A stretch of 63,998 bases of DNA, the filler included, from Dimargaris cristalligena (lineage: Eukaryota): assembly GCA_003614675.1 (NCBI GenBank). It is 9 parts of 9 records of this genome, joined end to end, with 100 filler letters (N's around TTAATTAATTAA, not from the genome) between each part and the next. Parts side by side here need not be neighbours in the genome. Positions count along the whole stretch, not along the records: positions 7,186 to 14,264 come from ML003456.1; 8 more parts are not named here. One strand, given 5' to 3'. The first letter of the stretch is position 1; each line of letters begins with the position of its first letter. A program made the translations under genes and the position numbers. Below the pieces are notes generated by a model. The model was not told the origin of the DNA. It saw only the letters and a program-made list of their open reading frames with translations, and searched no databases. Below are positions 7,186 to 63,066 of this stretch, one piece after another.

Positions 7186-7331
7186 ACCATATAATAATAA
7201 AAATGGAGGAAAAATGACTATACTCATCAGGGGCAGGGGCTCATTCACTCATCAGGGGCGTACTTCCAATAAGTGCAAAAAATGGATTAAAAATAAAAGT
7301 AAGTAAAAAATTTGGTAAGTTCACCACACTA
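7186..7331 (-). mobile_element. DNA-transposon terminus (hAT-like), inverted copy of 14058-14264
   Basis: Read inward: TAGTGTGGTGAACTTACC followed by subterminal CCCCTGATGAG / CCCCTGCCCCT repeats. Similarity to the 14058 copy stops exactly at TAGTG. Confidence 0.55.
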
Positions 7332-7341
7332 GCTAAAATAA

Positions 7342-7791
7342 ACAAGAAACCCAAGATATGGACATCACAAATGCAACTGCTGACTTAGTGACAAATTGCT
7401 TGTGGAAAGTCATGCTAAGTTACATGCTACTAGAAAGGAAGTACCTTGTAAAAAATGTAAGTGTCTATGGACCAATTCAACAGCCTTTAATAAGCACCAA
7501 AAAGTTCCCTGTGACAACACTTGCCCAAATTGCAAGAAATAATTTGATCATCAAGACACTCTTTACCTTCATCAGTGTACCAAAAAAGGTTGCCTATTTT
7601 CAGGGAACTGTGCTGAATGCAGTGAATTTTTAGATGATCCTGCCAAATACAACAGTCACGTGACAAATGGATATACTGGTGGCGGGACTCACAGTCTATG
7701 CTGGCTCAATGGCAAATATTTTAGGTTGGCGGGTATTTTGAGAAAGCGTCACTATGCGAAAATGTATGAGGGGGTATATGTGGTGCTGTGA
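7342..7791 (+). pseudogene. Decayed multi-C2H2 zinc-finger coding sequence
   Basis: Frame absent from the ORF track: ...KCNC*LSDKLLVESHAKLH..CKKCKCLWTNSTAFNKHQKVPC..CPNCKK*FDHQDTLYLHQC..CAECSEFLDDPAKYNSHV..CWLNGKYFRLAGILRKRHY. Stops at 7381 (TGA) and 7540 (TAA). Confidence 0.7.
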
Positions 7792-10700
7792 GAATTGACA
7801 CGAATGGCACACATGGTCAATCTAGCTGATAGCAAACAATGTGACTGTCTGACTTGCGATTCATACCGATAATGAGCTTACAATGGCGAGTCAATCAAAG
7901 CCAGCATTACCAGACCACAAACTATTATTATTATATACATTTTATTTTAATGTTTTAATTCGTAAAAAAACATTATATTTTCGTTTGATAGTACTGTTGA
8001 CTGATCCCGAGATGAAAGGAATCGTCCTTCGTCATGGGAAAAGTTTCTTAGCAAATTGATAAATCACGAAAATGATACATCACCGGTTTGTTCGATGGAT
8101 GGATAGAGCGTAATAGACAGGTAAATACATAAACCAGGCAATATCCTGCCGTCAAAGAGGAGAGTAGATCATCATTAATCGCTATTATTTTAATATAATT
8201 ACCACTATCATCTCATTCGCATAATAATAAAATTTACTTCCATTTTTTTTCTTCTTGACGATGTCTTCGAACGAAGGAACCCCAGCCCAGAAGAGTGTCG
8301 CCCCCGGAGAGCCCTCGAATACCGCGCACGGTGAAAAGGGGAGCGTGACCCCCACAATCACCGAACACACCATATACACCTGTCGTAAATACCGTAAAAT
8401 TTCATTTGAAAATAATTGCCAGAGAATACTTCAAGATAAATGCAAAAGCTCTTGACACACGTCCAGGACCTGGTGTGCCCAATGAGACACCCCGTTTGAT
8501 TATCATTATGTTGTATCCACAAAACGCACTTCCACTACCAACCCAATGCTATTAACACAAGACCCGGCTCTACATTGGCTTTAAATAAAAACCAAACAGC
8601 CCATGTCACTACTTTCGATGTTGACATAAATACTATGATAGTCGAATATGCCGTCTGTCAGCTGGCTATCCTATTGGTTGGATCGGAGCACCCTCTACTA
8701 GGATGTTCACTCAACCACTACTTGCCCAATGTTGGGTAGAAAGTCCCGATTAAAGCACATACCATAATTTTGACCGCCACTACTACGCAACACTATCTTT
8801 GATAGAAGAATAATAAGAGCTCTAATTATCACACATCACCTATAGGCCTTGAATTGAAAATATACTAGTCGTTCAACTAGCGGCTGACAACAGTCCATAA
8901 ACTACCTGCTTTACATGATTGATCTGAGGCCATCTCTGTATGAGGCATCGGCCAATTGGGGATTCGGTTTTCTGTAATGTTAACTATTCGGTACGGTTTG
9001 GCATATGGCTTTAACAAATAAATAAGAGGTAATCGGGTGATGATGGAGTATCAGATGTAAAATAATGGCCTTGAAATAGAATATCCGAATGGTTAGAAAA
9101 CGCGTATGCCGCCAAATAGTAAGCGTCCCAATCTCCGGAAACAACAGCTATAACTGTCCGTTGCCTACCCAGAGCCCATATAAAATATCTATAAAAAAAT
9201 GGAATCTTAACAGAACCAGAGGCCATGGTGGGTGACATGCCGTCAGAATACTATAATGTAAATCTTGGCTATCAACTCATAGACAGAACTCGACTAATGG
9301 AGTATTTGCGGTATAGATGGTTGGACTCACTCTGTAAGTGTTTGAATAACCAACTAGTGTTTATTTCTTGTGGTTTCAAATCAGGAACATTTAACCCAAC
9401 TGTGGGAGAAATAGATAGCGGGGTCATATAGTATATGTTTTGGAAAGGTGGATATGGGCACACTTTCTATACCGGTTCGGAAATCAAAGAAAAAATAGCG
9501 AAGCTGCGAAAATTCGGGATTTCAAGTTAGAGCGGGATTGTCACGGTGGCTAGTGCTCTGGCCAGTGCCTCACTCTGGTGGCTAGGCAAATTTCCGCTTA
9601 GAACTAGTTTAAATGCGGCGGAGGTTTCCTGGGCTCTACCGATATAGGCGATGCCTATTAGGAATGGGTGAATGCGGCCTCAGTGCACTTCACCTTGTTT
9701 GTGACACTTCTACTCTTGGATGTGACCTGCGACATCTCACTACCCTGCAACTGTCGACTTTTCAATAGTTTCGGATATGAGGGTCCTTGAAAGGGGACAA
9801 TCGATCATTGACTTCACTCCATGAACCGTGGTACCACCTTACTATATTTTTGACAATTTATTACCAACCTTGATATATGAGCACGTTGATCGGATAACCG
9901 CGGCTTACCCCAGTTGCCGATCTCTCCACCCCAGGACACCCAACTAACTAGGATACGATACGGCCCACGAGCAAAGAGAGAGGTAGGTCTGCTTCGAAAT
10001 GGTACGGCCGGAAGGTTAGGTTGTGGCTGAATCCGAGACTCATTAATAGCACTTCTACCGCATGGGTTACACATGGGTGGGTGGGACATGTCCTTGATGC
10101 CAAGGGTTATCCTACCTCTCTCGTTAGCCTGAGTAATAATAGGTTTTGCCGACTGGATACCGATAAAGTTCGGCTTGAGCGAATAATGATCGATGGGAAG
10201 TGACACAACGCATGGCCTGGATGCTTGTCTTATGGGTGCTCAACTGCCCTTTAGAATGATACAACATTGTCTTCCCTTTACCTCATGTGGGCTAAAAGGC
10301 TGGCCCTACCGATTTTCACCATAAAAGAGAGATGTGGCTGAGTAAGGGGGATACGGCGGGGCTTGCCATTGACCAGCCTTGGCCATCCGTATGAAAGCAC
10401 AACGTACTACCCAACTTAGACATTTTCTCATCCATTCACTCGACATACTCTTCACTTAATGTACCATATACCACTTTAATCCCTAGGAAGTTTTACACTT
10501 GGTAATATGAGTTAGAAGTTGGTCTGTATTTTTTTCTTAAAAATACCATCTAGCTAGGTTACCAACGGTACGGCTGTTGTGTCCATTGGCAAAGGCAAGG
10601 TCTTGCGAAGCGATGGCTGGGATAAGTCAACTGGCGGGAATGGCTATGAGAAGAGGAACGCCACAGAGTCAGGTTGTCATGATTAGAGAGTAGTTATGGG

Positions 10701-12244
10701 GAAATGTCGGGTGTAGGATACTAAGGTACCAGTATTCAAGTAGTTGATTAGAAAAGGTGTAATATTAGTATCAATCTTCGCGGCGATAATTAAAGAAGGG
10801 GGCAGGAAGGAGCCTGTCTCTACCGACACAGTCTGGCGATGGAAATTTGATGCAGCGGTCCGGATTACTACATTTGGGTGGCAGGGGCAATGTACCGACT
10901 GACCCTCGACTGGAGCAAAAGAGGAATTACCCAACCGGCATCGGGGACTCTAGTCGAAAAAAAAATGACAGACTTATGCACATGTGCTCAATCTCTTAGC
11001 ATCAGAAATGCATGCGTACGTTTTCCCTCTATGGCCACACAAGCCATGGTCTGTGCGCTTTGGATTCCCAAATCAGAACGTGTTTCAGCGGCATCGCTGT
11101 AATGTTGCATTGCCATGGTTAACCGCCCCATTCCAGAACCAAGGTTCAAGCGGGTAGGCTTCTCAAGGATATAGTTCCAGTAGTCATCCCATTTGGAAAT
11201 CATGGAGAGGGCTCAAGAAGAGGGGGGGGTCAAAAAAACATATGAGCACAGAAGTGCGAAAGACTAGCCAATAGGTCACTATATCAGAATTTGATGGTGT
11301 AAAGCTAGATAAATTAAAATTGGTGGACTGGCAGGTCTTAGCTAGGGGTTTATTTTTTACGGTGGGGGCAATGCTGATAGGACGGCACTGCAAGTTATCT
11401 GTGGGCATCCCCAAATACTCTAATGGGAACTGAGGTGGGAAGGGTTGGTGCAATAGGGAAAATATAGCAGAGATGTCTTTTGGGTATTGGCTGGATTAGG
11501 CAACCGTCCATCGTGGTACTGGGAGCTACCATGGGAAAGGCGGCCTACCATGATACGAGTCAGGTTGGCGGCTATCTAAAGTTAAGGCCCAGTCGAAATA
11601 GCACCAACTACCCTTTGCGGCTGGCCGTGGTATTGTCCTATACCTCGCCCTGTTCTTTGACATGAGGTTTATCGGAACATCTGCTCTAATACCCTGCTAC
11701 TATAATGCCTCTGTGCCCAATTAATGATTTGACAACGGGTCACTAACGAAGCGACTGAATGAGTGTTAGGAGTATTCACCAGGCCAGCGACTTATGGACC
11801 TTGCCTATAGAGGTTACACCCGGCGTCAAAGAGTGGCCAATTAAGCATTTCTATATAGTGATTCCATGAAAAACAGGCCCTAATAAGAGCATATCGCTTC
11901 GATTATTTTCTACATTTAACCGTGTGTCGCACAAACTACTTCATGGGTGTAGCCGTACTATTTATGATAGGGACTAGCTGAAATATTTCCGGCATGATTT
12001 CCCACTAATTAGGACTCCATATGAAGGACAATGTCCATAACAGGCGGTTCTGTCATTGGCGGCTTGAAAGGCAAGAAAGGCGACCATCAGTTGTTTTGAA
12101 TTGGTGTCATTGACGCAAGAGGGAGGGGGTGGAGACCGGCCAAACCAAGGCCCACTGGATCAATCATTGCAATTGGGTACGGTGAATTAAGCGGACACGC
12201 CTTTGGTTAGAAACCCCCGACGCACCTATTATTATTTGCAAGAA

Positions 12245-12252
12245 TATATAAA
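12245..12252 (+). promoter_or_regulatory. Probable TATA box of the 12419 gene
   Basis: TATATAAA about 170 nt upstream of the ATG, followed by a C-rich leader. AATAAA lies at ~12804, downstream of the stop. Confidence 0.45.
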
Positions 12253-12418
12253 GACCTGGACATCCCCCCTTCGAGGTAAGACACCAACCGACATACAACC
12301 ACCGGATCAATCGATCACAGACTGATATAACATCCCCCCGCTTCGCTTCACGCCCCCCAGCTCCCTCGCCCAAGTAATCCAACCTTCGCCCCGCTTGCTC
12401 CCCCCTTTGTACCTAACC

Positions 12419-12700
12419 ATGCAGCTCCCTAGCCTGTCCCTGTTGGCTCTTATCGCCACCACCACTATTACCGTCGCCAACGCGGCCGTATTGCCCAGCA
12501 CTGCCACGGGCAATGCCGTCGCCAATCTACCAGTGAACCTGGCCCATGCCTCTAACGGAGATCATGCGACCCCTGTGAACCAGGCCAACAGCAATGACGA
12601 TGACGATGACGATCCACCTCATAAATGTGGCAAGTGTGGTCTTAAGTTTTACAATACTCAGCAGTATTTGACCCATCTTAATGAGCATGCGAAAGGCTAG
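12419..12700 (+). CDS. Small signal-peptide protein with one C-terminal C2H2 zinc finger (93 aa)
   Basis: ACCATG start. MQLPSLSLLALIATTTITVANA|AVLP is signal-peptide-like (ANA cleavage). A D6 tract precedes HKCGKCGLKFYNTQQYLTHLNEH, an exact C-x2-C-x3-F-x8-H-x3-H. Confidence 0.8.
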   Translation: MQLPSLSLLALIATTTITVANAAVLPSTATGNAVANLPVNLAHASNGDHATPVNQANSNDDDDDDPPHKCGKCGLKFYNTQQYLTHLNEHAKG

Positions 12701-13577
12701 ACCTCTGAAGACCGGCACACCCTTTATCTTTGGATGAAGTTACCCACTCCCCGTATCGCATTGTCCACTCCAATAGAGTTAAAAATTGGAACGAGTCTCC
12801 ATAAATAAACTTGAGATTTAGATATATGCATTGTAATGGACATCCCTGTGGAGAGGCGTATATATAATCAGAGAATGGGGACTGTAATCATTTCAATTAC
12901 AGGCTTTTGGCCGTGGTTATATGGCAGACCTCTATTCACTTACTACGACTTTAAAAGGCTACCAGGCTGGTTTATCTTTGAAGAGCAACCTAAGACAATA
13001 CCCTTCTTTCAAAGGGGGGGTTACAAGCAACCCAACTATTTACTGAATACTTCTTTTGCAAAATGAAATCCTTCCTGTTAGCTATTTTCGGTTTTGGTTA
13101 TCCTTGTGTATATTATTCAAAGTTTTCTGTAGCCATATCGAACATCTTCCAGGTGTATTACTTTCAATTTTCTGGGAAGGAGATTAGGCCTACGCATGGC
13201 CGGGTTAGGCGGGGATTAGTAAGACATTGCTGACTTCATCTATATTTAAAATACTACAATGTCAAATTAATTGAATCGTCCAATTACTGGCCAAGTATCA
13301 AAAAGAGCGGAAGTTAAACCCTAATTTACTAGTGACTAGTGCCATATGCGTTTGTAGTACTGGATAGCCCCACCTTTGAAGTACTAGGTTTAGGAAGCTG
13401 CAAAACAGCCTTTGCTTCATTCTCAGGCTGTTCTGATTTTGCAATGGAGGATCTCTGGCTCACAATATTGGGGATACCTGAGGACACAGACTGGCTGGAT
13501 TCTGGGATGTAGGAACTTATTGTAGGTTATGGGCAGGTCCATAAATAACAAGGAATTTTACTTATTGAAGTATGTGG

Positions 13578-14057
13578 TGTCACCAGGGTCAACTACTCTT
13601 AGTCCATTAAGAGTCCTAAGGATAGGCTTCCAATGGTAGGTGGGGCTTAGGCTTGGCCAAGTGGGCTACTAGTGTCAGGTATGGGGCATGGTACTAACTA
13701 ATAAAGGCTATGGCAGGGATATGTAAGGGATATACAGTGGGTACACTTATTAGTCAGTATGAGGGGGATGAGTGTATATAGAGTTTATTGGGGGTAAACT
13801 AAGGGGTAAGAATAAGCTAAGGAATCTAATTAGTCCCAATGGGACCCAGTTATATGTATATAGGGATGACTCCAGAGGGAGGTCTGGGGGAAGGTTACTA
13901 CTAAGACTATAGGATAGATAGATGGGCTGATTAGATAGCTGCAGGTATCTGGAAGGCTCTGAGGGTAACTAGAAGAGTCTTTGGATCAGTACTCAAATGA
14001 TTAGTACAAAGAGGCAGGGCCAGAAGGGAAAGGGTTATATAATATAGGATGATCCCA
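13578..14057 (-). mobile_element. LTR family copy, interrupted by the hAT-like terminus at 14058
   Basis: Begins TGTCACC (reverse complement of GGTGACA). Colinear with 42825-43318 and ~5680-6159. No CpG. Confidence 0.8.
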
Positions 14058-14264
14058 TAGTGTAGTGAACTTACCCCATTTTTTACCTACTTTTATTTTT
14101 AATCCATTTTTCGCACTTATCAGAAGTACACCCCTGATGAGTGAATGAGCCCCTGCCCCTACCCCTGATGAGTATAGTCATTTTTCCTCCATTTTCATTA
14201 TTATATTATTTTTCCTATTATTATATTTTATACCCTTGACTGTGATGTACCCCTGCCCCTGACC
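14058..14264 (+). mobile_element. DNA-transposon terminus (hAT-like)
   Basis: TAGTGTAGTGAACTTACC..., with subterminal CCCCTGATGAG x2 and CCCCTGCCCCT x2. Reverse-complement match to 7186-7331. Confidence 0.55.
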
Positions 14265-17114: not shown

Positions 17115-18275
17115 TTAAAAGGCTCTACTTACATCTGCAATGCGATTCTTGACCCCTTTAAAGAAGGCATCTCCTTTGCCACCAGTAAGATAGGTCCGTG
17201 TTGTTTCAATTATCCCTCGACTGTCATCTGAAAACCTCATTCGCACTATTGAGGTTGGGTTTCCACCCCGGAGACTTCGGTTCTTTTGCTTTTCTGTCAG
17301 AGCGGGCAACGACTCCAAGGATACATACTCCAATTTTTCCTGGGATCTAGTCGTGGCGTACGCCCTAATTTCACGGTGGGTGGGGTAACTAAATAGTTTA
17401 GTTACATGTCCGTACCCCACGGTAGTCCCCGCATGATTCCCGTAGGTTAAATCGACTACCTCCACTGGCTGCAAATTACGGCCAAAGGCCATCCATTGTG
17501 TTGGTCCAGGAATCTTGGCCGCGATTGACCATTCGATCCCACGACGTTTCTTGAAACGGAACTCTCGAAGTTCTTCGTTGTATTCGTAGGGTAGCGAGCT
17601 TAGACCGGCGATATAGTCCCGAAAAGTAAAAAAGAGCTGTGTTGGCATGTCGGGCGCTTTCCCCACCGTCAACTTACGGGTAATGAATTCGGTGACTTCG
17701 TCCTCGTTGATAATGGTTGGATTATTTGTCAAGGGTTGACCATTGCCCGTCTGGCCAGCGCCTCCGTTAACCGGAGGGCCTGGGGCAGGGATCTCACTTA
17801 CTTGCAGGGTGAGGGACTCGCCCCCGACGCGCTTTTTCGAACTTATGCGGCGTTGTATCCACACCAGATAACGGCGGGTAATGCCACACCAACGCACATG
17901 CACAATCTCTAAAGCCGTCGGAATGGGGTCTTTCATTTTTTTGAACATCATGGGAGTAGACTCCACCTGGCTATTTCTCAGATATGCAGTGGCAGCTTTC
18001 CCTTTTGTGCTCACTCCGTGGTCGACGACGAACCTGTTGACAATTTGTTCGACCCGCTGCCGAACCCAATCCTGGATATCGGCGAAAGGAAGCGGCTCGC
18101 GGCTCGGCGTAGGGGCCGGGCCATTGAGGGGGTCCCATAGTCCCAGGACCGGAATGGCTTCGCCTATCTTGGGCGCGGGACTAGCGTGGGCCACACTGGT
18201 AAACACGACTAGAGCGAAAAGCATCCCCACCGTGGCGTAGGCCAGAGGTCGGTAGCGGGAAAAGATGGGGCACAT
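17115..18275 (-). CDS. Signal-peptide hypothetical protein (386 aa if unspliced)
   Basis: ACCATG start, hydrophobic VGMLFALVVFTSVAHA|SPAP, basic clusters RRISSKKR and FKKRRG. A GTAAGT donor at 17132 suggests the gene continues. Confidence 0.7.
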   Translation of the reverse strand: MCPIFSRYRPLAYATVGMLFALVVFTSVAHASPAPKIGEAIPVLGLWDPLNGPAPTPSREPLPFADIQDWVRQRVEQIVNRFVVDHGVSTKGKAATAYLRNSQVESTPMMFKKMKDPIPTALEIVHVRWCGITRRYLVWIQRRISSKKRVGGESLTLQVSEIPAPGPPVNGGAGQTGNGQPLTNNPTIINEDEVTEFITRKLTVGKAPDMPTQLFFTFRDYIAGLSSLPYEYNEELREFRFKKRRGIEWSIAAKIPGPTQWMAFGRNLQPVEVVDLTYGNHAGTTVGYGHVTKLFSYPTHREIRAYATTRSQEKLEYVSLESLPALTEKQKNRSLRGGNPTSIVRMRFSDDSRGIIETTRTYLTGGKGDAFFKGVKNRIADVSRAF

Positions 18276-21586: not shown

Positions 21587-22880
21587 CACGGTCTGACCAA
21601 AAAGTTTTATTACTGGGGCTGTAAAATTGGTTTCACATGCACCATCTTTTATTATGAAACAGTTTTAAATAGATAAATAAAAACTCTATTGTGGGAAAAT
21701 TTGAAAGCTGTAGTATTTTTAGTTTTTTTACTATACTATTTTTCCTACCTCATCATGTATTCAAAATTTGATATCCAATTGAACATTAAGCTCTGTTATA
21801 AGCTTGGAAAAAGTGTCAATGAGACCCTAGAGATAATCCAAAATATCCATGGGGATGGTGCTATAACCCTTAGGACTATTTTCCATTTGTTTGCAAGCTT
21901 TAAAGAAGATTGGAAGGAGATCAAGGATAACTCCCATTCAGGATGCCTAAAGGAAGGGTGTAGCAAGAAACACATCCAAATAGTTGCTGATATCCTGAAA
22001 ACTGACTGGCAGATAACCACCCAATTACTTAAGGATATGACTGGAATACTTAGAGGTCCACTACTAACAGGATTCTGGTTGAGGATTTACTGAAAAAGAT
22101 CTGCACCCAGTTTATCCCCCATTAGCTAACCAATGACTAAATGATGTCCAGAGTGGACTATAGCTTGGATATACAGAAAATGGGTGAAAATGACCAAAAT
22201 TTTGCTGGAAGTATTGTTGCTGGTGATGAGACTTGGTGCTTCCAATATGAGCCATTAACAAAACATAATAGCTCTAAGTGGGTAGGTACTCGAGATCCAA
22301 GACTGAAGAAATCACACCTTCAACTGAGCCAAATCAAGACTTTGCTTACTATTTTCTTTGACTCTAAGGGGATTATCTACTAGGAATTTACTCCCCAAAG
22401 CCAAACAGTCACTGGTCATTACTACCTGGGAGTCTTAATACACCTACTGGCAAGGATCAACTGTGTAAGGCTAGAGTACAAGAAGTAAGGATCCTGGAGT
22501 ATCCTCTATGATAATACACCTGTACACAAGTGTAAAATTATCTGGGCATGTTTAGCTAAAAGAGGTGTAGTAGTACTTAACCACCTACTGTATTCACCTG
22601 ATCTAGCCCCAGCTGACTTCTGGCTATTCCCAAAACTTAAGCTGGATATAAAAGGGGAGCATTACAGCTCTATACAGGACATCTAAGACACTGTGACTGA
22701 CATCCTAAAGGGTATCTCAAAGGATGGATTTCTAAGCTACTTCCACTCATTATTTAGGCGATTCCAGTGGTGTATTAATGAAAAAGGATCTTATTTTGAA
22801 TAAACAGAAAAAAATATGTAAATATCTTAAACTATTTACATTTTAGAGCACTAGTAATAAAACTTTTGGGTTAGACCATG
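21587..22880 (+). mobile_element. Full-length mariner (DD34D) transposon, 1294 bp, inactive
   Basis: TA on both sides (21585-6, 22881-2). ~40-bp imperfect TIRs: CACGGTCTGACCAAAAAGTTTTATTACTGGGGCTGTAAAA vs CATGGTCTAACCCAAAAGTTTTATTACTAGTGCTCTAAAA. Confidence 0.95.
21755..22803 (+). pseudogene. Mariner transposase pseudogene
   Basis: HTH start NIKLCYKLGKSVNETL, then IVAGDETWCFQYEP and YDNTPVH...YSPDLAPADFWLFPKLK with 34 residues between the 2nd and 3rd Asp; ends GSYFE*. Frameshift near 22050-22090; stops at 22138, 22381, 22486, 22684. Confidence 0.95.
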
Positions 22881-24012: not shown

Positions 24013-25299
24013 TTAGTTATACATGGCCTTGCACGAGTCAAAAATGGCGGCGCAAGTAAGATTTTTACACCAGGGACAAATGTTAGTCAAATCATCCTTG
24101 TCGTAGAAAGTGACCAGACCGGTGGTGAACAAAGTAATGATAACGGCCACCGAAATAACCCAGGCCACAAGGCGAATCCATTTAGTGTATTTATCGAAGG
24201 GCAGGTTAGACAGAAAGATGAGACCCGCGAAGAGACCGGCGATGAAGCCACCGATATGGGCGAAATTGTCGATACCGGGCAATAGACCGAGCACGAAGGA
24301 CAGGCCAATGACAATGACGAATTTGGAGAGCTCTAGGCACGGATTATGAATGCGATGCCAGTTAAATAGGATCTCCAAGAGTTGGCAGGCGAGGAGGCCG
24401 AAAAGGGCGCCTGATGCCCCCACGGAGGCGAATAAAGGGGGCGATAGGATTGATCCTAGAATGATGCCACCTATACCACTGAGTATGTAAATGGCGCCGA
24501 AGCGCCACCAACCGATTTCCCGTTCCAGTTGGCTGCCGTAGGACAGCTGGTGAAGCAGATTGAAGAGTAGGTGGAGTACGCCGGCGTGGAGGAATATCGG
24601 GAGAACAAAACGGAAGCCCTGGTCCGGGGTACCGTCGGGCTTAAATCCATCGAAGCCGCACAGCTGCTCCCAGGTACAGGTGGTGTTAGTGGAATAGATG
24701 CCGCCGTCCTGCAGACAAGGAGCGGGCTGGTTGCTGTACGGGCCGGGGCGCATACAGGGCACAAAACGGGCACCGGTGTAGATGAGGGTAGCGGTGGAGG
24801 GGCCAATCATATAATTGAAGGGGCTGGTTTGAATGACACTACCAGTGAGTTGGTGGTTGATAATGAGCTCGACGACGAGGGCGATAACCTGGCCGAGGGT
24901 AAAAAGCCATACGACCCACGGCTGGCGTCGACGCAGGAAGGTAGTGGGGCCCCGGGCCTGGGGGTCAACTGTCTTGATGTCCACCAGCGGAATCACGGGG
25001 TGGGCCAAGGCGTTCTGGGAGTACTTGTCGGACACCATACCCAGGGCTGGGGCAGCGGGTGGTGAGCCGTACGGGACGGGGCCGCCAGCGGCATAGTAGC
25101 CGCCCTCGAGCTGGGGGGGTTGTGTTGAGTGGGAGTAGCCGGAGCTGTAGTATGACGAAGCAGCACCCGGGCCCGAGACGCTGGAAGGTGGCGGGTGGGG
25201 GTGGATGGCTAGATTATCGGAGGGGCTGGGAAACTCCCGGATAGGCTGATGGGCGAAGTCCGTGTGGTAAGGCCCCGCAGGTTCGAAGCGGCCGTTCAT
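24013..25299 (-). CDS. Rhomboid family intramembrane serine protease (428 aa)
   Basis: IFLHAGVLHLLFN, LEREIGWWRF..IY..SG, catalytic SVGASG and IDNFAHIGG; seven hydrophobic segments; C-terminal CPWCKNLTC. Confidence 0.96.
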   Translation of the reverse strand: MNGRFEPAGPYHTDFAHQPIREFPSPSDNLAIHPHPPPSSVSGPGAASSYYSSGYSHSTQPPQLEGGYYAAGGPVPYGSPPAAPALGMVSDKYSQNALAHPVIPLVDIKTVDPQARGPTTFLRRRQPWVVWLFTLGQVIALVVELIINHQLTGSVIQTSPFNYMIGPSTATLIYTGARFVPCMRPGPYSNQPAPCLQDGGIYSTNTTCTWEQLCGFDGFKPDGTPDQGFRFVLPIFLHAGVLHLLFNLLHQLSYGSQLEREIGWWRFGAIYILSGIGGIILGSILSPPLFASVGASGALFGLLACQLLEILFNWHRIHNPCLELSKFVIVIGLSFVLGLLPGIDNFAHIGGFIAGLFAGLIFLSNLPFDKYTKWIRLVAWVISVAVIITLFTTGLVTFYDKDDLTNICPWCKNLTCAAIFDSCKAMYN

Positions 25300-36496: not shown

Positions 36497-38425
36497 CTAA
36501 TCTTTAGAGGGAATAGATTCTGCATCTCCTAGAAATAAAATATCCTCGAATTCCTGGTGTACCTCTAGGTGGTTTTGGATATACAATGTCATGGTGAAAC
36601 TATTGAGTAGGCCATTCATCGGATAATATCTAGTCCACTTTTGAGCCAGTTCGACCAGTAGCCTGCCCCGGTGTTTATAGCCTGGCAAATGAAACGTTAA
36701 ATACATGGCACGCTCTTTTTTGGTAATCCGGTCAAAGAATATTTTGAGATATTCGTCAAAGCTAGTCATTAGCTTAAGCACACCCTGCCCAAAAATACGG
36801 ATCCTATAGCGGAGCAAATGGGCCCGTAGCAACATCGAGGTGCGACTCGAGTGCCGGGCTACAAAATCACGATTCATATGTTCCAAAATGGTATTTTGCT
36901 GTTCGACCAGGTCGGTGGCGGCTGGGGCCTGACTTCTCGGGTACAGCATCTGCTCAAAAAGGAGGAAGAATTGCGGGTCGCATGAATCGTACCATTGGAG
37001 TTCCAACTTGGAGGATCGCTTGGCCTCGCTATGCAGGTAGATGCCTGTCTGGAGTAAGTAGCGCAACACTTGATTAATCTGCTCCATCATTTGCTCGGGG
37101 CTGACTTTTCCGCGGCGCAGAAATTCGAAGATGCGCACGATATGGTTGAAGTAAGCCTCGGTATCCCGGTAAAAGTAAACCTGGCGACTGTAGACGCCGT
37201 CCCATAAAAGCAGGTCACCCAGCCGAAGAGCCAGAAATTCCGTTTCACCCGGAAGTTGAGCCCACGGAGGAATGATCCGAGTCGGCGGGTCGTTAGTAAA
37301 TTGGACCGGACGACCGATAGCCTGGCCATTGACACCGGCTAAGGTGTGGGGAATATATAGGGCACTTTTCCCCCAGACAGACCCGTGAACGAACCCCAAT
37401 TGAGCTAATATAACGGATGTTGGCTCAGCGGACCTATCTAACTCTGTTTCAGGGTCGTTGTCGGGAACAGGGGCTGGCTTGCCCACCTTAGGTCGGGTAC
37501 GCACTCTGTCTCCTTTACATTCGGGGACGGACGGCGGGCTAACGCTCTTCCCTTGGGCGGCTTTGGCGACGGGGGCGGGGGGCTGTTTGACCAGCTTAGA
37601 CCAGGCATGCTCGTCATTTTGTTTCGGTCCGGAGGTGGAAGCTGGGCTAGCCGAAATTGGCGCAGGCGTATTAGTAAGCTTCACTCGGTCGGTGTTGATG
37701 GTAGAAGGGAGGAGTTGTTTACCCAACTCAGGCCAGTCGCTCTCACCTAATTTCAATTTGGGAGCGGAAACCGGGTGCTTCGGTTTAGCCCAGGCGGAAT
37801 TTTCTACCTTTGGCCGGGGATTCTCGACGTTAGGGAATGATGCTCGTTCAGCTACTTTGTCAAAGGTTGGGGTGGGTAATTTGCCCTTTACGGCCATACT
37901 ATATGACGAGGGATTCGATTTTTTGACCTCATTCCACGACTTTTGATTGGTTTTTGAACACGTAGACTTGCTGGTCCCCAAGTGGACATCCCCCTCGACT
38001 ACCAAACTCGTCTGTGACTCAGGTAACGGGTCCTCAACCGATGAGTGGCTAGTCATGACCCCAGCTTGGGACAGGGCGTCGCTTCCATCCACGGAATTTT
38101 CGATCTCCCAATCAGAAAGGTACTCGCCCTCGCCCCCCTCTCCCCCTATATCGCTGGGAATATTGGAATCGGGGAACTGCGCTCGTTTATCCCCGTACGA
38201 AATAACAGAAGGGGTCCCAGAGGAACTCGCCCAGTCAGTACTCCCCGGCTCCTCCTGTAGTAGAGGATAGTCCGCCCAGTCTGAGACTTGATGCATAATG
38301 TCACCAGAATTTGCGACACTCACCGGATTGGCCTGTATCAGGGAGCCTGGCGATGAAAGGGCCAACCACAACAGGAGGGCCACCGGAAACGTACATTTTC
38401 GCGAGGAAGCAATCGGGTGCATCAT
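36497..38425 (-). CDS. Signal-peptide hypothetical protein (642 aa): low-complexity N-half, helical C-half
   Basis: ACCATGATG start, FPVALLLWLALSSPGSLIQA|NP signal-like, intronless 1.9-kb ORF. Confidence 0.8.
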   Translation of the reverse strand: MMHPIASSRKCTFPVALLLWLALSSPGSLIQANPVSVANSGDIMHQVSDWADYPLLQEEPGSTDWASSSGTPSVISYGDKRAQFPDSNIPSDIGGEGGEGEYLSDWEIENSVDGSDALSQAGVMTSHSSVEDPLPESQTSLVVEGDVHLGTSKSTCSKTNQKSWNEVKKSNPSSYSMAVKGKLPTPTFDKVAERASFPNVENPRPKVENSAWAKPKHPVSAPKLKLGESDWPELGKQLLPSTINTDRVKLTNTPAPISASPASTSGPKQNDEHAWSKLVKQPPAPVAKAAQGKSVSPPSVPECKGDRVRTRPKVGKPAPVPDNDPETELDRSAEPTSVILAQLGFVHGSVWGKSALYIPHTLAGVNGQAIGRPVQFTNDPPTRIIPPWAQLPGETEFLALRLGDLLLWDGVYSRQVYFYRDTEAYFNHIVRIFEFLRRGKVSPEQMMEQINQVLRYLLQTGIYLHSEAKRSSKLELQWYDSCDPQFFLLFEQMLYPRSQAPAATDLVEQQNTILEHMNRDFVARHSSRTSMLLRAHLLRYRIRIFGQGVLKLMTSFDEYLKIFFDRITKKERAMYLTFHLPGYKHRGRLLVELAQKWTRYYPMNGLLNSFTMTLYIQNHLEVHQEFEDILFLGDAESIPSKD

Positions 38426-41120: not shown

Positions 41121-42272
41121 TTAAATGATAAACGAGAAAACTAATTGGAGATCCGGATGATAAGGTAAAGATACTCGGCAATAAGCCCTCATAGTTTCTA
41201 ATGCCTCCCAACGGCCCCAATCCAATACCCTCAATGGATTAATCTTAGCCGCGAGCATACCAGCAACCATTGTCTTCCTCAAACTATGTGATGAGTAGTC
41301 AGAGGCAGTGATACCCTGATGCCCAAATGATTGGAATAGGGCTTGGATACTCCGGGTAACCCAGGCTGCTGGGTTGCTCTTGAATGTTTGCCACAGCCTG
41401 TCTGAGGTTAGTGATGCTAGATACTGTTCAAGAATGGCTTTAAAGCCTGGGCAAATTGGACTGGCCACTCGATGGATACCTTCTAAGTGTGCCTTACGTT
41501 TTTCACCTGCAATAAAGACAGACAATGTAAGACCCTCGAGGGTCACATCCTGCCGTCGTAGACTGGCTAATGAATTCGCGCGTAGACCAAAAATAATGCC
41601 AATGATAAATAGAGCACCCCATTCTAATTGTACCTTATTCGGGACCCACCCCAGGGAATACAGACACCTATATAGATGTGTGGGGATTGGGCGTGCTCCT
41701 TGGGGATCCCTCGACTCTGGAAAGTCCTGGTAAAAGGTAACTGCGTAGCCCTTTCGAAACTGTGATGCGGCCTCCTCAGAAAATTCGACCTGGCCATAAG
41801 TGACCCTATCAAACTTTGTTATCGGTGCTAGCCTCCCAGGTATTGACCGGGGATTTACCCTTAAGGTATATAGGTATACTAGGTATGAAATTAGAGTCGC
41901 GTCTGAGATCGGGTGTGCCGGCATACTTCTCAATTGACAAAATTGCAGAAATTGGCGATGATGATTCTCGTAGGTCTTCCAAGTTGCCTTGGAGAGGCTG
42001 TTCTTCAGGATAGTTGATGCCATACTTCCTTCTGGTAAGTTTGGGGCCAAGTGTGCCAACCACCGGTCTGTAATCACAGAAGAATAATCCCCCTGGGTCC
42101 TAAGTGAGCCTAAAATCGAGCTACGATCATTTTCCAACGTCGATTCATGAATGGTTCTGGGAGTAAATTGTGAGACCCCATCGGTGGGATTGCCCACTGG
42201 CCATGAATCGGAAGTTCGCTGATTGATTTTGCATGCTTGACTAGGGGTGGCCACCAGGGTTGGCTCCGCCAT
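41121..42272 (-). CDS. Tyrosine recombinase of DIRS-like element (frame open from 42470, first ATG 42272)
   Basis: N-domain SLSKATWKTY..QFLQFC..LISYLVYL; catalytic FGLRA (R), YSSHSLR (HxxR), GRW (W), MRAY (Y); PICP motif. Confidence 0.92.
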   Translation of the reverse strand: MAEPTLVATPSQACKINQRTSDSWPVGNPTDGVSQFTPRTIHESTLENDRSSILGSLRTQGDYSSVITDRWLAHLAPNLPEGSMASTILKNSLSKATWKTYENHHRQFLQFCQLRSMPAHPISDATLISYLVYLYTLRVNPRSIPGRLAPITKFDRVTYGQVEFSEEAASQFRKGYAVTFYQDFPESRDPQGARPIPTHLYRCLYSLGWVPNKVQLEWGALFIIGIIFGLRANSLASLRRQDVTLEGLTLSVFIAGEKRKAHLEGIHRVASPICPGFKAILEQYLASLTSDRLWQTFKSNPAAWVTRSIQALFQSFGHQGITASDYSSHSLRKTMVAGMLAAKINPLRVLDWGRWEALETMRAYCRVSLPYHPDLQLVFSFII

Positions 42273-61398: not shown

Positions 61399-63066
61399 AT
61401 GCTGCCACGACCCTACCGGCCAGCCCGGTCAATCACGGGCCTCCTACGCCGACTAGGCGGCTCCCTCTACTCCCCCCCATTTGCTGCCACTGATTTCTCC
61501 TGCCTTCAGCAGGGAGTCCGTTCCACCCTTTTACCCCTTTTGGCTTCCGGAAGATCCTTTGCGTCCCGGCGTGAATTCAAGGAAGATGCCTGGCAGCCCA
61601 ATCCAGGGCCCAGTGCCATACCCCGCATGTCGTCGGTACTCCAAGAACGGGCCGCTTCGAGATCGAACACCACCGCCGATCCCCAGCAGTCCCCGGACAA
61701 TCCCAATGCCTCGCTGGGGGTGGTTTCCCAGGCCCTCATGGCTCTCTTACCGTCACTCCAGGCCGATGCCACCATTGATACCAAAGGCTACCGCCGGGTA
61801 ACGGCCCGGGATTTAGTTGCGGCCAAACAGCCCCCGGTCAACACGCAGATGCTGGTACGGGACTTCATCGACGACTGCCTGTACAACCCCCAGTACGGCT
61901 ATTTTTCCAAACACGCCACCATTTATTCCCCCGAACAATTGACCGATTTCACAGCGTTACAGGACTCGTTGCAGTTTATGAACCATGTAGCCACCAAGTA
62001 CCAGGACCTGGAGGGCCAGGCGGAACATCCCACCAACCGGTTGGCCCGGCAGGTATGGCATACCCCCACCGAGTTATTTAACCCCCATTTCGGACATGCG
62101 ATTGCCAAGTACATTGTCACGGAATATAAATTAAACCACTACCCCGAGGAGGACCTGATCATCTACGAAATGGGAGCGGGTAACGGAACCCTCATGACCA
62201 ACGTCATGGACTACCTACAGACCCACGAACCCCAGGTTTACGAGCGCACGCGGTACAATATCATTGAAATTAGTTCCCAATTGGCCGAAGTCCAGGCTAA
62301 CCAACAGTCCGTACGGTCGTCGGCCTCGGCGGTGCACCGGGGCGTCCAATTCGTCAATCGCTCTATTTTCGACTGGGATACGGAAGTCCCTCATCCGTGT
62401 TTTTTTATCGCCATGGAGGTGATTGACAATTTCGCCCACGACCTCATTCGCTACGACCCGCTTTCGGGCCGGGCCTACCAGGGCACCGTGCTAACGGACC
62501 GCAACGGTGACTTCCACGAGGCCTTTGAAGCGGTCGCGGACCCTTTAATTATCCGGTACCTCCGGCTCCGTCAACAAACGGGGTACCAATCACCCCTGTT
62601 CCACCGCCGGGCCCATTTCTGGCGGCAGCTCCGTAGCCATTTCCCGTTTCCCCCTAATCTAACGGAACCCGAATTCGTCCCCACCCGGCTGTTACAACTC
62701 ATGGATGTACTCCAACGCTATTTCCCCCGGCACCGGCTCGTGGTCTCCGACTTCTTCCACCTACCTGAAGCGGTTCCGGGTATTGATGGGCCCGTGGTCC
62801 AGACGCGCTACAAACAAACCATGGTGCCCTGCTCCACGTACATGGTCCAGCCGGGGTGGTTCGATATTTTCTTCCCGACCAATTTTGAATTGATGCGCGA
62901 TATGTATTCCCAGGTGTGCCGGCCGTATGCGCCCTACAGCCAAACTAAAGTGGTCGGACAGCGGGTTTTCCTGGAGCGGTACGCGGACCTCGAGGCGACC
63001 ACGACTCAATCGGGGGAAAATCCGATGCTCGATTACTATGAGAATAACAAATTCCTGCTGACGTAG
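61399..63066 (+). CDS. Mitochondrial SAM-dependent methyltransferase, NDUFAF7/MidA (DUF185) family
   Basis: Arg-rich targeting peptide from ATG 61399; MLVRDFIDDCLYNPQYGYFSK, WHTPTELF, IYEMGAGNGTL, IIEIS, AMEVIDNFAHD, DIFFPTNF. Confidence 0.92.
   Translation: MLPRPYRPARSITGLLRRLGGSLYSPPFAATDFSCLQQGVRSTLLPLLASGRSFASRREFKEDAWQPNPGPSAIPRMSSVLQERAASRSNTTADPQQSPDNPNASLGVVSQALMALLPSLQADATIDTKGYRRVTARDLVAAKQPPVNTQMLVRDFIDDCLYNPQYGYFSKHATIYSPEQLTDFTALQDSLQFMNHVATKYQDLEGQAEHPTNRLARQVWHTPTELFNPHFGHAIAKYIVTEYKLNHYPEEDLIIYEMGAGNGTLMTNVMDYLQTHEPQVYERTRYNIIEISSQLAEVQANQQSVRSSASAVHRGVQFVNRSIFDWDTEVPHPCFFIAMEVIDNFAHDLIRYDPLSGRAYQGTVLTDRNGDFHEAFEAVADPLIIRYLRLRQQTGYQSPLFHRRAHFWRQLRSHFPFPPNLTEPEFVPTRLLQLMDVLQRYFPRHRLVVSDFFHLPEAVPGIDGPVVQTRYKQTMVPCSTYMVQPGWFDIFFPTNFELMRDMYSQVCRPYAPYSQTKVVGQRVFLERYADLEATTTQSGENPMLDYYENNKFLLT

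Follow-up and report, generated by a model that had tools for sequence, protein, structure and literature searches.

Dimargaris cristalligena carries a small gene whose 93-residue product is probably secreted, judging from its predicted signal peptide, and ends in one classical C2H2 zinc finger. The open reading frame (ORF) is a real gene. Its product would be the smallest in an arsenal peculiar to the lineage, with 27 or more C2H2 proteins that start with a signal peptide. That over two dozen zinc-finger genes of this fungus carry export signals suggests that the parasite may send gene regulators of its own, together with decoys, into its host. For the 93-residue precursor itself we tentatively favor, at a little short of an even chance, a role as an exported, host-acting effector that binds protein. 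D. cristalligena is a mycoparasite that lives biotrophically by means of haustoria. According to the available part of PMC9866270, Dimargaritales parasitize Mucoromycota and some Ascomycota by means of an appressorium and a biotrophic haustorium.

The 93-Residue Open Reading Frame

The window, i.e., the whole stretch of 63,998 nucleotides that was analyzed, is a string of separate contigs of ~7 kb, and the gene lies on the one at 7186–14264 (G000:C1249, ML003456.1). It is intronless and runs on the plus strand from ATG to TAG at 12419–12700. Everything that the first-pass annotation had read in it was found again: an N-terminal ANA site, an Ala/Asn-rich linker, a D6 tract and a C-x2-C-x3-F-x8-H-x3-H finger, with a TATA box and an AATAAA signal on either side. 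The TATA box (12245–12252, +) stands 174 nt 5′ of the ATG with no intervening ATG and is kept in the promoter of a paralog on contig C467, hereafter paralog B; the promoter region shared by the two genes (12050–12300, +) is 65–74% identical per 100 nt. The polyadenylation-like AATAAA (12804–12809, +) follows the stop codon by 104 nt. A candidate 85-nt intron in the 5′ untranslated region (12276–12360, +) has a GTAAGA donor, a branch-like site and a CAG acceptor and contains no ATG; its donor is lost in paralog B. Such an intron was considered as a family trait and dropped, being a candidate in just 2 of 20 genes.

Residues 1–22 (12419–12484, +) form a signal-peptide-like segment. The N-terminus is hydrophobic, an A-x-A site precedes residue 23, and cleavage is predicted after A-N-A by our own heuristic, which combines hydrophobicity with the (−3,−1) residues and is not SignalP. 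The segment is kept in paralog B and in the public model KAJ1973649.1. It is followed by a low-complexity Ala/Asn/Pro linker (12485–12595, +), predicted to be disordered and free of Phe, Trp and Tyr, and by six aspartates, D60–D65, encoded by a GAC/GAT repeat (12596–12613, +) at which paralog B lacks 18 nt. The single classical finger (12626–12688, +) presents C70, C73, H86 and H90 in the spacing C70-x2-C73-x3-F77-x8-H86-x3-H90, with Y83 also present, and so agrees with the pattern C-x2-4-C-x12-H-x3-5-H with a core aromatic. Its helix positions −1, 2, 3 and 6 are N, Q, Q and T, without an Arg. Pfam zf-C2H2 (PF00096) matches residues 68–90 with 15.6 bits (E 0.022), under the curated cut-off of 25.2 bits. 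The 15 residues before the finger include one basic (K/R) and six acidic (D/E) ones, and just three residues follow it. The mature chain as a whole has 8 D+E vs. 4 K+R, as well as 5 His and 2 Cys. Simple mono- and bipartite patterns of a nuclear localization signal (NLS) gave no match in the 93-residue protein.

AlphaFold2, given a three-row alignment, modelled the mature chain with a mean pLDDT of 63, residues 1–40 being at ~50 and the finger at 73–86. The finger is predicted as a hairpin followed by a helix (58–70, mature numbering), that is, a beta-beta-alpha fold. The matches listed by Foldseek were all classical C2H2 proteins (rmsd 0.6–2 Å over 24–30 residues, none at E 0.001), the best VIA-align Z was 2.9, and C2H2 proteins were also among the matches listed when solved structures were searched with a profile; over 25 residues, no higher scores would be expected. 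The rice blast effector AVR-Pii was absent among the matches listed by all three (profile search, Foldseek, VIA-align), which is not evidence of a different fold.

The Start of the Protein

A public gene model, RKP33930.1, gives a protein of 129 aa, with 36 more residues from an extra exon (11531–11580, +) joined by a 780-nt GT-AG intron ending at 12360. The exon is probably spurious, since paralog B has ACG in place of its ATG, then an in-frame stop, and has lost the donor. Were translation to begin there, the 129-residue product would have its signal peptide buried and would stay with the parasite, as a single-finger protein inside its cells or anchored in a membrane. We regard this as very unlikely. 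The public model with its GT-AG intron and the negative result of the signal heuristic on this form speak for it, but the model's ATG, frame and donor are absent from paralog B, indels of 28 and 19 nt relative to paralog B between the acceptor at 12360 and the ATG at 12419 break its frame, and the conserved TATA promoter would fall within its intron. Another public model, KAJ1973649.1, begins at the same ATG as the 93-residue ORF. The lost exon features, the intronic TATA box and the indels make the 93-residue form the preferred one. It had been asked whether the ORF might be the last exon of a longer, conventional transcription factor; RKP33930.1 adds only 36 residues through an exon whose features paralog B has lost, and neither gene model turns the ORF into the terminal part of a long transcription factor. 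Gene predictors truncate or bury signal peptides of this kind (RKP33930.1, RKP37687.1), which may explain why the repertoire described below was missed.

Close Relatives and Constraint

A search of the genome with the 93-residue protein returned five matches: the protein itself, paralog B, a protein C, and L003 and L004, the last two being dropped as low-complexity or signal-peptide-only matches. Paralog B (G000:C467; 83 aa, 54% identity) has an open frame and keeps the signal peptide; its finger is altered to C-x-C ... C-x-H-x-H, with the hairpin sequence still kept. Protein C (G000:C253; 99 aa) has a signal peptide and an intact finger and forms a cluster of its own; at 26–28% identity and E 3.3, its likeness beyond the finger falls short of establishing homology. 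Signal peptide and finger are retained in both of these mini-proteins, the finger being intact in protein C and altered in its ligands in paralog B. The D6 tract is shorter in paralog B, and a basic stretch takes its place in protein C.

Public collections contain each of the three mini-proteins at full length and almost unchanged (P0002, P0012, P0006). In a word-index search of protein databases the sole full-length match among five candidates was a 93-residue D. cristalligena protein, 99% identical. Among the best 150 matches to a profile run against 1.84 billion representatives, those over the full length were the three mini-proteins plus another model of paralog B; the others covered the finger alone and belonged to long poly-finger proteins. 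These word-index (one match among five candidates) and profile searches, both of low sensitivity, found no relatives outside D. cristalligena. The ESM Atlas returned generic C2H2 clusters, under 0.9.

The comparison of the gene with paralog B (dS 0.65, dN 0.33; 26 differences over 60 synonymous and 49 over 186 nonsynonymous sites; Fisher p 0.016) gives a dN/dS of 0.50, which points to moderate constraint. The coding indels are of 18 and 3 nt; of the 21 indels in the upstream flank, 18 are not multiples of three. Under neutral simulation at two divergence levels, both frames stayed open in 40 and in 11 of 20000 runs. Nucleotide identity per 100 nt is barely higher in the coding part than in the flank (65–72% vs. 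60–74%). The ~1.6 kb of non-coding DNA upstream (window 10800–12418) is still alignable to the paralog B locus at 60–74% identity, so the duplication took in a long upstream region.

It is quite improbable that the gene descends from a larger secreted zinc-finger gene and is now in decay, with hardly any function left, or none. The moderate dN/dS and the modest contrast between coding and flanking nucleotides would agree with decay, as would the many broken members in the genome, among them L050 (start lost), L091 (decayed) and the fragments L061, L066, L093 and L131. However, both paralogs still have the start, the signal peptide and the frame after a dS of ~0.65, the finger-free part matches no larger family, and TATA box, ATG context and AATAAA are all intact. 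L091 (1130–1707 of the locus, G000:C113) is itself a decayed two-finger gene that retains a TATA box and, in a different frame, the remains of a signal-peptide-like segment; among 158 other fingers, its first one comes nearest to that of the 93-residue protein.

A Genome-Wide Repertoire of Signal-Peptide C2H2 Proteins

The finger motif is not due to chance, since the finger DNA pattern of the 93-residue gene has 101 matches in the genome vs. 3 for the reversed pattern. Three finger patterns were searched in all, with 101, 39 and 17 matches and 3, 6 and 2 in the reversed controls. The places translated were the matches listed, and one of the 101 is not among them. The scan covers unsplit fingers of the three searched spacings, and fingers split by introns or spaced otherwise are missed. 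It yielded 90 distinct strict-finger frames, 36 of which were removed (19 without a Met before the finger, 17 with fewer than 45 residues before it), so that 54 were scored.

A signal-peptide-like start is present in 27 of these 54 ORFs by our own heuristic, not SignalP. The same heuristic was positive for 139 of 10800 shuffles, for none of 250 internal Met starts, and for 6 of 35 other ORFs of the window (≥90 aa), a background that differs from 27/54 with p 0.002. Recognizable native C2H2 regulators turned out negative; these are presumably the fungal CreA, PacC, Ste12, Crz1 and the like. One native four-finger regulator (L019/L020, G000:C73:12748–16903) occurs as two near-identical tandem copies ~1.1 kb apart with one end differing, a recent duplication or an assembly artefact. 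The 27 do not include paralog B, L050 (start codon lost) or L091 (decayed). Pairs that are almost the same, such as L009/L043, could be allelic, since Dimargaritales-type fungi are described as possibly non-haploid in the available part of PMC9866270. A TATA box 60–300 nt upstream accompanies 18 of 26 signal-positive vs. 6 of 25 signal-negative ORFs, and an ATG stands between TATA box and start in 11 of 20 repertoire genes examined.

Clustered by their finger-free parts, the 27 proteins and paralog B fall into 13 clusters. The largest has 14 members, and two singletons align with it. Contig C253 holds three of the members and C259 two. L032, L041, L054, L055, L057, L060, L090, L101 and L108 are further signal-peptide C2H2 proteins (L055, a 570-aa ORF, being a singleton by its finger-free part), and their unrelated N-termini point to repeated independent fusions. 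No translocation motif common to the clusters was seen behind the signal peptide.

A family of two-finger proteins of ~240 aa (L008, L035, L037, L039, L040, L044, L045, L064, L069 and L116, on G000:C253, C259, C7, C332, C546, C588, C1239, C1133 and C291) consists of a conserved signal peptide, an acidic helical region, a Ser/Gly tract and two TGEKP-linked fingers with Arg-rich helices like those of native fungal regulators. Arg stands at −1 and mostly at 6, as in the native L006 and L021. Among nine of these paralogs dN/dS is 0.51 in the signal peptide, 0.71 in the linker and 0.37 in the fingers, and M1, L12, G13 and Q23 are invariant. The value of 0.51 indicates that the signal-peptide segment is coding and not a leader that happens to be read in frame. 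Outside the fingers the family matched only D. cristalligena (4 matches of 8000 scored), in searches of low sensitivity, one of which missed a known member; the ESM Atlas gave no usable match for its N-terminus.

The longest arrays occur in signal-peptide proteins of 400–456 aa with 4–8 Krüppel-type fingers (L026, L072, L074, L009, L043 and L050, on G000:C127, C1481, C1735, C14, C474 and C644), with 6–8 fingers each in L026, L072 and L074. The many broken relatives found elsewhere point to a fast turnover of this multi-finger family, with genes born and lost. Across the repertoire, TGEKP-like linkers are found in 14 of the 27 signal-positive members, the larger members have acidic linkers with 4–12% aromatic residues, and 8 of 9 larger members scanned pass a Pfam C2H2 cut-off. 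A classical NLS-like motif is present in 4 of the 27, which counts against a nuclear reading; finger arrays often bring their own nuclear import signal.

In a search of freely accessible literature and of the main texts of PMC6784888 and PMC9866270, whose supplements may give domain tables, no paper on secreted zinc fingers in Dimargaritales was found. By term counts on the main text of these two genome papers, as available, neither 'C2H2' nor 'zinc finger' appears; the same text discusses enzymes and metabolites.

Contig Setting

The first-pass annotation had placed the gene alone in a gene-poor contig bounded by transposable elements. The first part stands, as all other ATG ORFs of the contig are at most 91 aa long in an ORF scan, and a high-copy repeat does lie at both ends in inverted orientation (7189–7331 at the left and 14058–14206 at the right, strand not assigned). 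However, the repeat has 312 candidate places in the genome and terminates many other contigs, so the bounding by transposable elements is weak evidence, and the idea of a mobile block was dropped.

Other contigs of the window hold two single-exon ORFs, of 386 aa (17115–18275, −) and 642 aa (36497–38425, −), which begin with a signal-peptide-like segment and match nothing in Pfam; both are orphan effector candidates. A 383-aa tyrosine-recombinase-like ORF (41121–42272, −; Phage_integrase, E 1e-5) is, we presume, part of a DIRS or Crypton-type element, and a mariner-type transposase fragment lies at 21755–22093 (+; HTH_48, E 1.9e-5). Ordinary genes by Pfam are a rhomboid protease (24013–25299, −) and a Methyltransf_28 protein (61399–63066, +).

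Proposed Mode of Action

For a zinc-finger protein, a signal peptide makes sense chiefly when the protein is destined for a different cell. Once expressed, the precursor would lose its signal peptide in the endoplasmic reticulum and become a 71-aa, mostly disordered peptide with one zinc-stabilized beta-beta-alpha finger. This peptide would be exported into the host mould, most likely at the haustorium. There the finger would offer a compact protein-binding surface and block or divert a host protein, as AVR-Pii does, and would not read DNA. The earlier idea of a secreted zinc-finger effector of a parasitic fungus thus gains indirect backing from the haustorial mycoparasitic habit, the two other mini-proteins and the 27 signal-like starts among 54.

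Protein binding of the AVR-Pii kind seems likelier than DNA binding because the finger has no basic flanks. It is unlikely, in our view, that the peptide is delivered to the host nucleus and there, in the manner of MoHTR1 and MoHTR2 of Magnaporthe, changes host transcription by binding DNA with its single finger. Some features do agree with this: the canonical finger overlays DNA-binding fingers, larger relatives have Arg at −1 and 6 and TGEKP-like linkers, protein C has a basic flank, and a 71-aa peptide could diffuse into a nucleus without an NLS. Furthermore, MoHTR1 and MoHTR2 bind DNA with one finger each, yet single fingers require basic flanks, according to the available part of PMC7672089. 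In the 93-residue protein the signs of DNA binding are missing: the flank is acidic, the N-Q-Q-T helix has no Arg, the linker has none of the aromatic residues of an activation domain, the D tract is variable, the ligands are changed in paralog B, and simple NLS patterns give no match. For these reasons, the proposal that an acidic patch plus a finger mimics a transcription factor was given up for this member. The three mini-proteins need not work alike, and protein C, with its basic flank, could bind DNA.

The favored protein-binding effector also has to be weighed against a secreted peptide that acts outside cells, either by binding zinc or keeping it from others, or against rival microbes in dung or where parasite and host meet. 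The mature chain is small and acidic with its 5 His and 2 Cys, and paralog B retains a Cys/His-rich end with changed spacing. Nevertheless, one finger holds one zinc ion and makes a poor scavenger, and the DNA-type finger arrays of the wider repertoire are sensible only within a cell, so we consider an extracellular role improbable.

The larger members, with an acidic, aromatic-rich linker and 2–8 TGEKP-linked fingers, resemble complete transcription factors, presumably made for the host nucleus; their recognition residues are like those of native fungal regulators. We propose, with confidence just below even, that signal peptides and C2H2 fingers were fused repeatedly and that a library of Krüppel-type factors is injected along with single-finger decoys and rewrites host transcription, a eukaryotic parallel to TAL effectors, passed from one fungus to another and separate in origin from the Magnaporthe effectors. 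Should half of the scored C2H2 genes indeed encode exported proteins, biotrophic parasitism of fungi on fungi would employ effectors inside host cells in the way that plant pathogens do, and would share with Magnaporthe a convergent choice of the zinc finger. The multi-finger members lend themselves to a direct test: the sites on host DNA to which they bind could be mapped without culture of the parasite, revealing the host genes that a mycoparasite must control.

Comparison with Known Systems

The first-pass annotation recognized no described family with this architecture, a statement that has to be withdrawn, since MoHTR1–3 and AVR-Pii with its ZiF family share the plan. In Magnaporthe oryzae, 20 secreted proteins with DNA-binding domains (MoHTRs) have been listed, half of them C2H2; MoHTR1 and MoHTR2 enter rice nuclei and bind DNA with one finger between basic flanks, and GAGA likewise has basic flanks around a single finger (PMC7672089, available part). 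MoHTR3 combines a signal peptide, an NLS and a C-terminal finger, and such candidates went undetected in two other ascomycetes (PMC10189765, in the portion available). The D. cristalligena protein resembles MoHTR1–3 in having a signal peptide (here by our own heuristic) and one C2H2 finger, and about ten secreted C2H2 candidates are likewise found within one M. oryzae genome. It differs in its acidic flank and in giving no match to simple NLS patterns, vs. the basic flanks of MoHTR1 and MoHTR2 and the NLS of MoHTR3. The Dimargaris set as a whole is larger than the C2H2 set of MoHTRs (27 or more) and has arrays of up to 8 TGEKP-linked fingers.

AVR-Pii is a protein of 70 aa, unresolved at 20–43, with a C-X2-C-X12-H-X-C finger at 44–70 that binds Exo70 (PMC9618136, as available). 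The ZiF family comprises ten tribes with varied targets and includes MoHTR2, so that variants of the ligand motif are tolerated (10.1101/2023.10.18.562914, available part). The likeness lies in a small secreted protein (here predicted) with an unstructured N-terminal part and a stabilizing zinc finger at the C-terminus, and, for ZiF, in several divergent members per genome, some of them pseudogenized. On the other hand, the AVR-Pii finger is LIM-like, whereas the one described here is a classical C-X2-C-X12-H-X3-H; the host is a plant there and a fungus here, the phylum is another, and homology is not shown. The 93-residue protein most likely works like the MoHTR and ZiF effectors, as a counterpart of them rather than an established member.

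With Krüppel-type C2H2 proteins (PF00096; Zif268, IKZF2 ZF2) it shares the ligand spacing, the core Phe and the predicted beta-beta-alpha fold, but it has a single finger below the Pfam cut-off, no TGEKP linker and a fused signal peptide. The TAL effectors of Xanthomonas are modular sequence-reading proteins that a parasite makes, with an acidic region, and that act in the host nucleus after bacterial type III delivery. They are an analogy with the larger family members only, not with the single-finger protein, and their fold is unrelated. In general, the architecture is already known from Magnaporthe MoHTR1–3 and AVR-Pii/ZiF; what is new is the kingdom of the host and a far larger repertoire, apparently not reported before, in which some members are like transcription factors.
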